Of a stretch of DNA of 51,370 nt, positions 18,137 through 23,165 are shown one piece after another. The position numbers were made by a program, and so were the translations under genes. This DNA comes from an uncultured Nitrososphaerota archaeon. Lineage in GTDB: Archaea > Asgardarchaeota > Njordarchaeia > Njordarchaeales > Panguiarchaeaceae. Under the pieces are notes generated by a model that made no database searches, was not told where the DNA came from, and worked only from the letters and a program-made list of their open reading frames with translations. The stretch lies in the NCBI GenBank assembly GCA_964636085.1, contig CAZWPQ010000006.1, positions 14,075 to 65,444 of the forward strand, in the 5' to 3' direction. Every line of letters starts with the position of its first letter. The stretch's first letter is position 1.

Positions 18137-20080
18137 TTATGCTGATTCCTCTTTAAATATCCCCACCTTTTGAAGCAAAGACCTATGTATCTCCGATAGC
18201 GTCATTTTTTTAAGATACCCAACCACATAATTAAACAACTCTGGAACCTCCCTAGACTTTATAATTGCATATAAAACATCTCGTAACTGTTCGCCTTTCT
18301 GGGTAGCATACATTGCGGCCAATATTTTTCCAAATGAATCATAATCCTCAGGTAGTATATTATGCATGATCATTACAATTAGCCTCGATAGATTTTTTAT
18401 GGCTTCATCTACGGCAAAATACCTTTCTCTAGGATCAGTAATCGTCAATTCTGCTTCTTTAATTGTACGGAAGACATCTGTAATGAAGTCGATATAAGCA
18501 GCTATCTCAGAGGAATACTTCTTGCCTAATCCTATAAGATATTTCAGTATAGTCTCATATGTAGCATCAATTTCAGGTGGATTAAGAAGTAAATTGAGTA
18601 GTTTTAGTGTTGCATCTGTTTTATCAGCAACCCTCCTCAAGGTCTCGTATATTATCCTAGCGACACCATCAAAAATTGAGACGCCTGGAGATTGATTATA
18701 TGTTGCTATAAGATCATCAGCAAGACTCAAAATTATTCTAGGTTCTCTCTTAGCTATACTGAGGATTATGTTTTCGAGTAATATGACTCTAATTGATACA
18801 CGAAGTTCTCTCTCTGGTAACTTCATCAAATCCAATATTTTCTTAGCCAATAATTGCAGATTGGACACATTTACCTCAGAAATGGCTATTGTTGATAACA
18901 TCTCCTGTAGCTTCCATAAAACGTCCATGTTTCCTTTTTCAACATTAATAATGCCAGCAGCAAATTCTATTATTGGCCCAGCAGACTCAGGTATGTTGGA
19001 ATAAACCAGCAATAATGTGTCCAGAAACATTATTTTTGTATCATCATCCTGAATTCTATCATAATATGAGATAAGTGTCTTTATCAAGTCTACAGGCGGA
19101 TCTAAATTTCTCCAGATACATATAGATATTGCTCTAAGACTAGCTATAATTATCTCTATATTTTCTTCTACTGATGTTAATGATTTTATTATATCTATGA
19201 GCCTCCTTTTCTGCTCAACGAATTTTGGGTGCCTGAAATTATTTGCAAAATTAACTAGGGCCATTGCCCTTATTTTCTGGTTCTTATGCTTTATTATTAC
19301 CTCTTCCAATACCACACGGATTTTTTCTAGAAATTCTAATTCTCTTATGGGTATCACAAGATTAGCTATGAATCTCAATGAGCCATCTGGTATATCCAGA
19401 GAATTTGGATATCTTTCTAATAAAGCATTTACTATAGGCCTTACGGAATAGAAATTTCTCTTACCTATTAGACTCAAATATTCAAAAAGTTTGTCATAAA
19501 GAGGATCTCCTTCATTCTCCATTATTTCCTTTATTATATCCATATACTCGTTAAGTGCCCATGGGACATTCCACAATGCAATAAATAATGTTTCAAGAGC
19601 TCTTTCTCTAATCTTTGCCGATCCCTCCCTGATGGTCTTCTTTATGACCGCTTTAACATCTTCATCAAAAACTAATTCATTCTCCCCACTGAAGAAATGC
19701 TTAAAAGCTGTAAGAAGGGACACTAGACCGAAACCCTTTAGCGTACTCGAGAAATTTTTCATAATTAATTTGATAACCTTGAAAACTTTTTTAATATGCT
19801 TAGGCAATGTTTCTAGCAGCCTAGAAATCTGTATCAGTAATACTCCAAAGAATTCTAACTCCTCCATATTGCCAGCTTCTACTCTTTTAGCCAATTCCGT
19901 TAGCGTAAGCAATATCATCTTTAAGTTTGGTTCAATAACCGTAAGTTCAAAATCCTTTAGAGACATTATAGCCTGTAATCTTTCATCCCTTACAATGTTG
20001 GTGTTTTTAATTTTTTCTAAAGTCCTCATTAAATCTATTCCCGACATTTTACAAACCCAAAAAAAGTTCGACTCCCGCAT
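18137..20080 (-). CDS. HEAT/ARM-like alpha-solenoid protein
   Basis: Entirely amphipathic helical; HEAT-like turns (SAKIRERALETL, NQKIRAMAL, NIEIIIASLRAI); no TM segment or signal peptide. Confidence 0.7.
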   Translation of the reverse strand: MRESNFFWVCKMSGIDLMRTLEKIKNTNIVRDERLQAIMSLKDFELTVIEPNLKMILLTLTELAKRVEAGNMEELEFFGVLLIQISRLLETLPKHIKKVFKVIKLIMKNFSSTLKGFGLVSLLTAFKHFFSGENELVFDEDVKAVIKKTIREGSAKIRERALETLFIALWNVPWALNEYMDIIKEIMENEGDPLYDKLFEYLSLIGKRNFYSVRPIVNALLERYPNSLDIPDGSLRFIANLVIPIRELEFLEKIRVVLEEVIIKHKNQKIRAMALVNFANNFRHPKFVEQKRRLIDIIKSLTSVEENIEIIIASLRAISICIWRNLDPPVDLIKTLISYYDRIQDDDTKIMFLDTLLLVYSNIPESAGPIIEFAAGIINVEKGNMDVLWKLQEMLSTIAISEVNVSNLQLLAKKILDLMKLPERELRVSIRVILLENIILSIAKREPRIILSLADDLIATYNQSPGVSIFDGVARIIYETLRRVADKTDATLKLLNLLLNPPEIDATYETILKYLIGLGKKYSSEIAAYIDFITDVFRTIKEAELTITDPRERYFAVDEAIKNLSRLIVMIMHNILPEDYDSFGKILAAMYATQKGEQLRDVLYAIIKSREVPELFNYVVGYLKKMTLSEIHRSLLQKVGIFKEESA

Positions 20081-20150: not shown

Positions 20151-20909
20151 CTAGACTTGTAACTCTCGCATTCTAGAAATCTGATCGACAGATCCGAGAT
20201 ACAATACCTTTTTATCCTCAACCACAACAAATATTTCGAACCCTATTAGGTCCTTTATTATTGGTGTACTAAACTCACCTGAATCCACAGAACCTGCAAT
20301 CACGTCTATACCAGGAAGCAATGGAGTAAAAGCGGGAAGTACAATTATCTTGTCACTAACTAGAAATATGGGTAATTTATCTCTCGAGATAGAGTCCGAC
20401 AACATAACAGTTGGATGAAGATGCGCCATTATTAGTGTTTTCCTTCTTTGTTCTATAACTTCATCATCGAATATCTTATGCCCATGTAGAAAGATGTAAT
20501 TACCCAACTCTATAGTATTTTGAAAATCAATTCCATATCTTTTGAGAATTCCAATTAAGAAGTTATCATGATTTCCCCTTACCAAAATTATTTCTAAATT
20601 TAGGCTCTTTAGGAATTTTAGCATATCAACAACTTCTTTATGCTCTTGGACTGTTCTCTGAGAAAACACATGTTTTAGATCCCCCACAATTATTATCCGC
20701 TTTGGCTTGAGGCGCTTCACATGAGATCTGAGTTTTTCCTTCATGATTTTATACTGGATCGGGGGTATAAACACACCAGCCTCAGCCATAGCATACTCGA
20801 GACCTATATGAAGATCCGCAAGAACAACCGCATCAAGGCTTCTAATATATGCCATTTTCGATGGAAGTAAAACTATGTCTCCTAAGTCAACAGACATTAA
20901 CATCTCCAA
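20151..20909 (-). CDS. Metallophosphoesterase (COG1407 type)
   Basis: ADLHIG, GDLKH, RGNHD, HGH, AHLHP and LPAF. Confidence 0.9.
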   Translation of the reverse strand: MEMLMSVDLGDIVLLPSKMAYIRSLDAVVLADLHIGLEYAMAEAGVFIPPIQYKIMKEKLRSHVKRLKPKRIIIVGDLKHVFSQRTVQEHKEVVDMLKFLKSLNLEIILVRGNHDNFLIGILKRYGIDFQNTIELGNYIFLHGHKIFDDEVIEQRRKTLIMAHLHPTVMLSDSISRDKLPIFLVSDKIIVLPAFTPLLPGIDVIAGSVDSGEFSTPIIKDLIGFEIFVVVEDKKVLYLGSVDQISRMRELQV

Positions 20910-20999
20910 GTATTAGGGAATAATAGTGACATTTAGATTCAAGTTTTTCACTAATTTAATTTTTATACTGTTAAGAACATTAAAAGAGAAGGGAGAAAA

Positions 21000-21353
21000 A
21001 TGAGCAACATAACCGTAAGGATAAAGAAAAGTTTAAATGAACCTATTACAATATGTTCTAGATGCTTAGATCTACTCTGCCTAGATGGGTATATAGACTC
21101 TAATTTCGTCATCTCTAGAACAATATTTAAGATTAAAAAAATGTGTCAACTTTGTTCGGTTGCGCAGGCCGATTTTATTGTTATTCCCTGTAAGAGGGGG
21201 ATTTTTATTTGCGAAAGATGTTTTAGGGGGCTTACAACAACATCAAAACACAGATGGCAAAGTTGGCCAAAAAAGCAAGTAACGGAGGATATCCCATGCG
21301 ATTTATGTGGTAGGCCAGCTCAATTCCACATTACTCTGCCCAAAAGAAAATAG
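21000..21353 (+). CDS. Tandem zinc-finger protein
   Basis: Two copies of I-C-x-R-C...C-x-L-C-x3-A-x-F-x-(V/I) (CSRC/CQLC and CERC/CDLC). The stop codon overlaps the next start (TAGTG). Confidence 0.75.
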   Translation: MSNITVRIKKSLNEPITICSRCLDLLCLDGYIDSNFVISRTIFKIKKMCQLCSVAQADFIVIPCKRGIFICERCFRGLTTTSKHRWQSWPKKQVTEDIPCDLCGRPAQFHITLPKRK

Positions 21354-21916
21354 TGGACAGCATGATGCAGGGACTTGAGCTTTCACTTGTTGTTATTAAG
21401 AGAGGGTTCTGGGACTTCTCTGAGGATATACCCTTATTGAAGACACCAGATCATCCATCCATTAGCAAAAAGAGAGTAAAAGAGGAAATAGATGTATTCA
21501 ATACATGGAAAAAATTTAATCCTTCTATACCCTTTGACAATCTTACTTACAGAGGCGGCAGTATTTTTCTTATCGATGTTGACTGTTACGTGCTATTTGA
21601 CAAGCTGTGTGGAAGGACAAAACAGTTGACTGTAACCATAATCTGCCCACCTAGTTACCCAAGAGCATTTCCTCGACTTGCTGAAAACCCCAGAAATCTT
21701 CACGATAGAATTTTTCATACACTTGTTTCCCATACAACAAGACATGCTGTCTATCTCTGTATTCCAGCTATTCAGAGGATTTGGTGGACAAGACATGCCC
21801 CTTACGCTGGAATTGCCCATTTTCTCAATATTTTTCTTATATGGTTCTCGATATCATCAACCAATAAAAAGAAATCAAGGATAAATTTCTATGATAGAAG
21901 AACTGTGATTGTTTAG
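21353..21916 (+). CDS. UFC1-like (UFM1-conjugating E2 family) protein
   Basis: Collinear with eukaryotic UFC1 as recalled: SEDIPLLKT~SEIPVLKT, KRVKEE~QRLKEE, PPSYPRAFP~PITYPTTAP and LCIPAIQRIWWTRHAPYAGIAHF~[23 protein letters not shown]. Confidence 0.8.
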   Translation: MDSMMQGLELSLVVIKRGFWDFSEDIPLLKTPDHPSISKKRVKEEIDVFNTWKKFNPSIPFDNLTYRGGSIFLIDVDCYVLFDKLCGRTKQLTVTIICPPSYPRAFPRLAENPRNLHDRIFHTLVSHTTRHAVYLCIPAIQRIWWTRHAPYAGIAHFLNIFLIWFSISSTNKKKSRINFYDRRTVIV

Positions 21917-21928
21917 TCGTGATATAGA

Positions 21929-22684
21929 TTGATTATTATATTGATTGAGGGGCCATGCCTTAAGAGGATAAATTGTCCAAAGATAAGTGCAACGGCAATC
22001 AAACACAGAAACATAATGGATGAACTAAGTGAACTACGTGCACTTGGTATTTATATGCCACAAAGCTCTATAAATATTTTCTCATCCGTATATACGCGGT
22101 TACCACGCATATTAAGCATATTTAGAACAATTGACCCATCAACCTCCGTTTGTTTTATAACGCCTCTGGGCGTCCTATGTGAAAATGATCCCGCGATATG
22201 CTACGAGGAATGCTTTGATGAACTAAGTACTAGTACCATACGAACTATATTTGAAAAATTTGATGTAATGGAAACAATATATGATATGCTCGAAGAAGAT
22301 TTTGACCTCTTAATTTTTTGCAGTTCAAGCAAGTTATTGCGAGTATTGGAGATCGAATACTACCTACCAGCAAATCGGCCATCTATTATAGTATCCAATG
22401 CCTATACCACTGATAGGAGCAATATATATACGATCACGCTGAATCACTATCTCACAAGTAGGCTAAGAAGAATTTATGACAAGATAGCGTTAGTAGATCT
22501 TTATCAGCATGTACTTGAATTCATTGCCAAAGCACTCGATGATCTCGCTAGCAGAGGCTATAAACTTAAATATCTTTTCACTAGGCCCGAGGACCTACAC
22601 AAAACAATATTCTCCCCTGAGATGCTAGACAAAATACTAAGGGTTGGAAGAAGACAGGACAAATTATTGAGATTTATAAGCTAA
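21929..22684 (+). CDS. Hypothetical protein, distant YaaA/DUF6884-like
   Basis: N-terminal strand + PCLKR, later FITPLGVLCENDPAICYE, resembling the ILSAxYGLI...I..YD motif of that fold. Confidence 0.45.
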   Translation: MIIILIEGPCLKRINCPKISATAIKHRNIMDELSELRALGIYMPQSSINIFSSVYTRLPRILSIFRTIDPSTSVCFITPLGVLCENDPAICYEECFDELSTSTIRTIFEKFDVMETIYDMLEEDFDLLIFCSSSKLLRVLEIEYYLPANRPSIIVSNAYTTDRSNIYTITLNHYLTSRLRRIYDKIALVDLYQHVLEFIAKALDDLASRGYKLKYLFTRPEDLHKTIFSPEMLDKILRVGRRQDKLLRFIS

Positions 22685-23165
22685 GCCCCTCGCATTGATA
22701 ACTACCCATATATTCACCATATGATTTGGCAGTTACAAAAATAATCTGACATATTCTTGACCCTCTCTTAATTCTTATCCCATATGGATTATATACAACC
22801 ATCAGTCCTATTCCTCTCCCCTGATAACCACTATCCCAAACCGAGGTATACACTATAGCACCCATGCGTTGAAGACTTGACCTTGGAAAGACTAGCCCAA
22901 TGGCATTAGTGGGGATTTTTACGATCTCTTGGTAACGTACCAAATATGCACCCGGTTTTAATATATAGACCCCCTCACTATTCGGTAATATCTCATCATA
23001 TTTCGGTATGGTTTTACCATCATCAATTGTTCCAAGCCCACTAAAGGCATATACCCAACCCAATGTAAGATCAACGCCATTGGGCTGTATCTGTTCTTCA
23101 CTACAATTTCTTATAAACTTCGCGACTTCTCTCCCCGACCAGATCATTGGACTCACATTAAACAA
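22674..23165 (-). CDS. Trimeric dUTPase / dCTP deaminase family protein
   Basis: QIQPNGVDL, PRSSLQRMG, VWDSGYQG, RICQIIF and Y.GSYQ. Confidence 0.9.
   Translation of the reverse strand: MFNVSPMIWSGREVAKFIRNCSEEQIQPNGVDLTLGWVYAFSGLGTIDDGKTIPKYDEILPNSEGVYILKPGAYLVRYQEIVKIPTNAIGLVFPRSSLQRMGAIVYTSVWDSGYQGRGIGLMVVYNPYGIRIKRGSRICQIIFVTAKSYGEYMGSYQCEGLSL

Follow-up and report, generated by a model that had tools for sequence, protein, structure and literature searches.

The 51,370-nucleotide window analyzed here (the whole stretch of DNA under study, G000:C6:14075-65444) belongs to a 2.41-Mb, 83%-complete archaeal assembly of the order Njordarchaeales. On its forward strand, it carries three consecutive open reading frames (ORFs), the first two of which make up a conserved gene pair that encodes a predicted zinc protein (ZnF) and a conjugating enzyme (E2) of the UFC1 type. 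ORF1 (21000-21353, +, ATG start) specifies the tandem C4 zinc protein, which has 117 amino acids (aa) and a pI of 9.4; ORF2 (21353-21916, +, 187 aa from GTG 21353) specifies the divergent UFC1-type E2; and ORF3 (21929-22684, +, 251 aa, TTG start) specifies a protein with the DUF6884/YaaA fold. All three are real genes, since each has homologues at 27 to 64% identity in other genomes. An earlier note on this DNA had described three co-oriented genes with a 12-nt gap before the third, and this is the layout that we find (21916 to 21929 for the gap). The unit is likewise divergent from the genes of a metallophosphoesterase (20151-20909, -) and of an alpha-solenoid protein (18137-20080, -), as stated there.

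The region upstream of ORF1 (20960-20999, +) reads as a putative archaeal promoter and leader, with a TATA-like TTTTTATA at 20960-20967 that may act as the promoter element and a Shine-Dalgarno-like GGGAG at 20991-20995, 4 nt ahead of the ATG, that may serve translation initiation. Base 21353 is common to the TAG of ORF1 and the GTG of ORF2. Two in-frame ATGs, at 21362 and 21365, are as plausible as GTG 21353; the public gene call (P0001, 183 aa) begins at 21365, and the N terminus of ORF2 is not conserved in the orthologue alignment, so that the three starts are equally possible. In relatives, the ZnF stop and the E2 start overlap by up to 14 nt or are separated by up to 14 nt, with ATGA-type 4-nt overlaps in three genomes. 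The first two genes are therefore tightly coupled, as previously noted from their shared base, whichever ORF2 start applies. ORF3 follows with its TTG 12 nt past the ORF2 stop; this start agrees with the N termini of its homologues (M-x-I-I-x-I/V-E-G-P-C) and is preceded, at a distance of 5 nt, by the Shine-Dalgarno-like word GTGAT (21919-21923).

The conserved unit consists of two genes, ZnF and E2, not three. The hidden Markov models (HMMs) of ZnF and E2 match adjoining ORFs at every locus examined, namely, in 12 genomes of the order and on 3 short metagenome contigs that carry the pair at approximately 30% identity, with the ZnF gene always immediately upstream. ZnF occurs in exactly those 12 of the 14 order genomes that hold this E2 subfamily (4/4 in family f1, 1/1 in f2, 6/7 in f4, and 0/1 in f3), and it is kept beside the E2 in every one of them; both are missing from G285 and G289. 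Elsewhere among 400 Asgard genomes, the ZnF search returned only noise. Moreover, the ZnF-paired E2s form one side of a split, supported at 99/96, from the other Asgard UFC1-like E2s. One could argue that the adjacency of ZnF and E2 is inherited synteny without functional coupling, as long stretches of gene order are common to the relatives (Mrr-like/p294/TIM or eIF5A/MetAP, for instance). We regard this as extremely unlikely: the pair survives where all of its surroundings have been rearranged, its genes overlap by 4 to 14 nt in several genomes, and the phyletic patterns of ZnF and E2 are identical, down to their joint absences.

ORF2 is a divergent UFC1-type E2, as judged by its fold, its family profile, and an invariant cysteine. 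When 1.8 billion representatives were searched exhaustively with HMMER, only four related clusters emerged; a word-indexed search yielded six close sequences. Pfam UFC1 (PF08694, curated cut-off of 25 bits) is the sole family matched by members of the E2 clade, 7 of 14 (best E value, 4.4e-7), with the orthologue P0011 reaching 26.9 bits (positions 4 to 138 of 155) and the relative P0008 20 bits. When the family profile is compared with the PDB, the top match is UFC1 (3kpa; E value, 4.6e-4). This alignment places Cys136 of ORF2 on the catalytic cysteine of Leishmania UFC1 and the following “W..N.PYAGIAHFL” on “W..NVPYFGISHVL.” The AlphaFold2 (AF2) model of ORF2, with a predicted local distance difference test (pLDDT) score of 81, matches all 28 UFC1 entries with Z scores of 11.0 to 13.4 (VIA), versus 7.4 for the next-best E2; the alignments cover about 139 of 163 residues with root mean square deviations of 3.3 to 4.5 Å and approximately 22% identity. 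Accordingly, the top 28 Foldseek matches are all UFC1 (E value, 3e-4, versus >0.1 for other E2s). The UFC1-like character proposed for ORF2 in the earlier note is thus supported by its relatives in Pfam, by the profile, and by the fold. ORF2 was the one UFC1-like gene found in the window's genome.

Cys136 (TGT 21758-21760) is the only cysteine invariant in 14 orthologues, which are 28 to 61% identical; it is the predicted catalytic residue and would form the thioester. No H-P-N is found upstream of it. Thr129, 7 residues upstream, is also invariant, and the A-K of the TAK motif is not kept (T129-R-H-A). ORF2 and eukaryotic UFC1 (PF08694; PDB IDs 2z6o, 3evx, 7nw1, 8bzr, and 3kpa) share the UBC-core fold, the UFC1-specific N-terminal “IP-L-L-K-T...P” segment, the “W...P-Y/F-x-G-I/L-x-H” helix after the catalytic cysteine, and a size of about 170 to 190 aa, and both lack the HPN motif and the canonical C-terminal helices of E2s. 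However, ORF2 is only about 20% identical to UFC1, below the Pfam threshold, and it differs by an inserted helix (residues 116 to 128), a basic C-terminal tail, and the absence of a recognizable TAK. In addition, ORF2 has a dedicated zinc protein encoded beside it; the ligase that serves eukaryotic UFC1, UFL1/DDRGK1/CDK5RAP3, is zinc free.

The partner of this E2, ORF1, contains eight cysteines in four CxxC pairs (19/22, 49/52, 71/74, and 100/103), all of which are invariant across 14 orthologues, down to 27% identity. The pairs form two modules, CxxC-x26-CxxC and CxxC-x25-CxxC, giving a pair spacing of 26/18/25, and the two halves of the protein align to each other (hhalign probability, 96.5%; E value, 7e-10). 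ORF1 is therefore best described as an internally duplicated C4+C4 protein in which zinc binding is predicted and which is not a RING, in line with the duplicated four-cysteine module noted previously. A textbook RING was rejected on the basis of both this spacing and the scores of the best RING-type Pfam models, which reach 18 to 19 bits against a cut-off of 27. Since the halves are tandem duplicates, two sequential C4 modules are expected rather than a cross-brace.

Minimal ubiquitin operons of the Caldiarchaeum type (PMC6043591) also encode a small zinc protein with an E2. In these, however, the zinc protein is a small RING finger and not a tandem C4+C4 protein with 26/18/25 spacing, the E2 is of the UBC type and not of the UFC1 type, and the ubiquitin-like protein (Ubl) and the activating enzyme (E1) are encoded within the cassette, whereas here they lie outside it.

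The strict co-inheritance of ZnF and E2 and their translational coupling suggest that the ZnF is a ligase (E3), an adaptor, or a regulator of the E2, and the two proteins presumably bind each other. A complex prediction of E2, ZnF, and two zinc ions scored 0.02 against a mark of 0.32, which speaks neither for nor against binding. Going further, the tandem C4 protein could represent an E3 or adaptor of a previously unknown class, devoted to a UFC1-type E2 and perhaps acting with the alpha-solenoid; we put this forward tentatively, as a possibility. If true, the Njordarchaeales would possess a UFM1-like cascade whose ligase is not related to UFL1/DDRGK1, and UFC1-type conjugation would predate eukaryotes and have used a zinc-finger partner. 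The ZnF might also substitute for the C-terminal tail that recruits UFC1 and that is missing from the short UBA5-like E1 of archaea.

Alternatively, the ZnF could be no E3 but a zinc ribbon that binds nucleic acids or the ribosome and only localizes or regulates the E2, or it could be the main substrate of the E2. The two C4 modules are indeed zinc-ribbon-like, they carry basic tails, and the protein is basic overall. Zinc-ribbon ribosomal and NMD3-type models give weak similarities to ORF1, and ORF3, the metallophosphoesterase, and a dUTPase lend the locus a nucleic-acid flavor in this genus. Yet those similarities are all below threshold and the nucleic-acid-related neighbors are not conserved outside the genus, and we consider this alternative doubtful.

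The window's genome contains four ThiF-family genes. The best PDB match of the 262-aa E1 encoded at G000:C34:9983-10771 is UBA5 (97 bits; E value, 1.4e-26), ahead of ThiF (58 bits), and this E1 is too short for a UBA5-like C-terminal tail. The other three were rejected as the cognate E1, L004 being MoeB/ThiF-like and L006 and L007 being closest to NEDD8/ubiquitin E1s. L006:1420-3402 (-) and L007:58-2166 (+) represent further Ubl-type loci of the same genome; one of them has an 87-aa Ubl-like ORF, a 133-aa ORF, and a NEDD8/ubiquitin-type E1, and at the other, a 446-aa E1 comes after a JAB-like protein. At the locus of the UBA5-like E1 (L005:144-2205, +, on G000:C34), the E1 gene shares 47 nt with the 3' end of the gene for the primase large subunit and is followed, after 6 nt, by a 128-aa coiled-coil ORF.

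The candidate Ubl, of 106 aa, is encoded at G000:C6:72956-73276 (- in L057) and ends with EMLG-stop. Directly after its gene lies that of a 246-aa JAMM protease. This Ubl-JAMM locus (L057:3095-4277, -, corresponding to G000:C6:72094-73276) lies approximately 6.7 kb past the end of the window. The pair is conserved through the order, and the MLG-stop end is found in all 11 Ubl orthologues. In G290, the orthologue (L066:1225-1803, +) lies inside a 192-aa ORF that runs past the usual MLG end and may be a fusion or a read-through.

E1, Ubl, and E2 lie at three separate loci in the window's genome, and assigning them to one pathway therefore relies on the gene neighborhoods of relatives. In f4, the orthologous UBA5-like E1 gene adjoins the Ubl gene. 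Moreover, f4 genomes possess a second operon (L032:1077-3341, -, in G291; L033:83-2284, +, in G290) that encodes a helical protein (168 to 175 aa), a UBA5-like E1 (272 aa), a paralogous UFC1-like E2 (175 aa), and a Ubl (94 to 96 aa) ending with LLG and a short tail. This paralogous operon links the E1, E2, and Ubl families to one another. Its Ubl is 30% identical to that of the window's genome in a direct BLASTP comparison, and when used as a search query it missed the latter. The operon-type archaeal sets of the Heimdall group and of f4, which comprise a UBA5-like E1, a UFC1-like E2, a Ubl, and often a JAB protein, draw on the families to which the E1, the E2, and the Ubl described here belong. 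In contrast to the dispersed components of the window's genome, they are organized as operons. Their E2s also have no zinc partner; those of f4 group with the Heimdall-type UFC1-like proteins, on the opposite side of the 99/96 split from the ZnF-paired clade. A further arrangement is seen in the 5.8-Mb Asgard genome G128 (L026:622-1995, +), where an 88-aa Ubl-like ORF is followed by two tandem UFC1-like paralogues of 182 and 176 aa.

Taken together, we consider it probable that the Njordarchaeales possess a dispersed system for UFM1-like tagging, in which the two-gene ZnF-E2 cassette forms the E2 arm. In such a system, the UBA5-like E1 would adenylate the 106-aa Gly-terminal Ubl encoded beside the JAMM protease, and Cys136 of the E2 would then receive the Ubl in thioester linkage; that this E1 and this Ubl are the ones feeding ORF2 is what we infer. 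The ZnF, made in step with the E2, would bind it as an E3-like adaptor or as a specificity or regulatory subunit, and the linked alpha-solenoid might provide a scaffold.

Several observations weigh against this proposal. On the E2 side, ORF2 itself has no Pfam match at an E value of ≤1 and none in NCBIfam, its model reaches TM-scores of only 0.5 to 0.6 to UFC1, and the extra helix is placed ahead of the active-site loop. The ZnF has no relative of known function detectable in Pfam or by an atlas feature search, in which only unnamed clusters scoring <0.9 were returned, and it does not have the spacing of a RING. As for the Ubl, no similarity to UFM1 was detected by comparing the family profile with the PDB, by Pfam scans of each member, or by an atlas search. 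The components are dispersed over three loci, and with the genome 83% complete, another E2 or Ubl could be missing from the assembly. Lastly, the high general synteny among the relatives weakens the argument from the linkage of the solenoid.

Part of these observations would fit another reading of ORF2, namely, a noncatalytic UBC/RWD-like pseudo-E2, the pair then having a role outside Ubl conjugation. ORF2 fails the Pfam UFC1 model and has a helix inserted beside the active site, and with its sequence alone as the query, the PDB yields only matches with E values of approximately 0.6 to 1, RWD domains among them. We judge this very unlikely, given that one cysteine is invariant in orthologues as divergent as these and sits at the UFC1 catalytic position, and that the same genomes also encode a UBA5-like E1 as well as a JAMM-paired, Gly-terminal Ubl.

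With respect to the Ubl, the lack of a sequence tie to UFM1 is what would be expected if Asgard Ufm1 homologues are mainly detectable by structure (PMC12962969). Pfam Ufm1 matched nothing across the 400 Asgard genomes; the only match in the window's genome (E value, 0.08) falls within a beta-helix repeat region and is spurious. UQ_con, ubiquitin, and the UfSP-type Peptidase_C78 (PF07910) were not found in this 83%-complete genome; the protease gene located beside that of the Ubl is instead the JAMM type. UFL1 was not accepted either, as PF09743 gives only a 16-bit partial match in a protein with kinase and winged-helix-repeat regions. This 532-aa protein (L039:391-1989, +, on G000:C52) has a Ser/Thr-kinase-like N-terminal half and a repetitive, winged-helix-like C-terminal half.

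A phylogenomic survey described UFC1, UFM1, and UFSP2 as exclusive to eukaryotes, with only UFL1 and DDRGK1 tracing to Asgard archaea (PMC10183829), and a 2026 structural survey reported Ufm1 homologues in Asgard archaea without mentioning UFC1 (PMC12962969). Our full-text literature searches found no report of an archaeal UFC1. A UFC1-type E2 in the Njordarchaeales, accompanied by a Gly-terminal Ubl and a UBA5-like E1, would move the origin of the UFM1-type E2 into the archaea, and the UFC1-like genes of larger Asgard genomes point in the same direction. The obligate zinc partner represents an unexplored component, and it raises the question of how a UFC1-type E2 could be directed to its substrates independently of UFL1. 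The E1, the Ubl, the E2, and the 117-aa zinc protein would lend themselves to reconstitution as a small system.

The third gene of the locus has a distinct history. The AF2 model of ORF3 (pLDDT, 90.5) matches archaeal DUF6884 clusters of the ESM-atlas with TM-scores of 0.72 by query and 0.77 by hit over 220 aligned residues, YaaA clusters with TM-scores of 0.47 to 0.48, and YaaA itself (5caj) with a Z score of 6.3 over 174 residues; its YaaA/DUF6884-like nature, as put forward earlier, is thus supported at the level of the fold. According to Pfam, DUF6884 is a YaaA-related, probably DNA-binding “cantaloupe” fold, for which CxxxK and LSAxxG motifs have been described (PMC11701544). ORF3 matches this alpha/beta fold (DUF6884, PF21818; YaaA, PF03883) overall. 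It differs from DUF6884/YaaA in that it has no match in Pfam, nor any in NCBIfam or, by sequence, in the PDB; none of nine family members matches the Pfam DUF6884/YaaA model at an E value of ≤1. In the ORF3 family, Cys10 and the (I/L)-Ser20-Ala motif near the N terminus are conserved; in contrast, CxxxK does not keep its Lys, nor LSAxxG its Gly. We consider that ORF3 probably binds nucleic acids. Solved structures offer no clear match to the model: the best Foldseek match is an azoreductase (E value, 0.017; TM-score, 0.27), and generic periplasmic-binding or Rossmann-like folds (VIA best Z score, 7.6) were rejected as common-fold noise.

ORF3 homologues are present in 13 of the 14 genomes of the order, and they adjoin the ZnF-E2 pair only in the window's genus. 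The earlier note had proposed that the three genes together form one conjugation module, with the ZnF as the E3 and ORF3 as a substrate or effector. The 12-nt gap leaves no room for a promoter, making it probable that ORF3 is cotranscribed with the pair in this genome, and each of the five genomes in the genus keeps the trio, even G296 with its different flanks. Nevertheless, in the sister families f2 and f4, the homologues are found at other loci while the pair is intact; in f4, they lie beside unrelated genes (95 kb from the pair on the same contig in G291), and the pair is followed instead by the genes of a small helical protein and a DEAD/Lhr-like helicase. A conserved three-gene module is therefore not what the gene neighborhoods reveal, and nothing marks ORF3 as a substrate or an effector. 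We regard the three-gene module as unlikely; ORF3 is a nonobligate member, added to the probable transcription unit in this genus alone. At its other end, ORF3 converges with the dUTPase gene (22674-23165, -), the 3' ends of the two overlapping by 11 nt (22674-22684).

The alpha-solenoid protein of 647 aa is lineage specific, with no Pfam, PDB, or named homologue found. Homologues at 20 to 25% identity are encoded near the ZnF-E2 pair: G288, G290, and G291 have the solenoid gene directly divergent to that of the ZnF, G292 has it directly downstream of that of the E2, and in G286, G287, and G296 it lies 5 to 9 kb away. The solenoid thus recurs as a neighbor, staying within 0.1 to 9 kb of the pair through rearrangements, and it is possibly a scaffold. 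Since synteny among these genomes is generally high, the linkage is suggestive but not decisive.

The metallophosphoesterase is of the SbcD-related archaeal type (TIGR00024, 157 bits, and Pfam Metallophos). It is the divergent neighbor only in the window's genus, and at the f4 loci no such gene separates the solenoid gene from that of the ZnF, which places it outside the module. It also resembles the ligase-associated endonuclease PdeM (102 bits, below the cut-off). In this genus alone, the metallophosphoesterase, ORF3, and the dUTPase jointly give the locus a flavor of DNA metabolism. Neighboring genes are archaeal housekeeping genes, namely, those for eIF5A, MetAP, TIM, and Topo VI-B.

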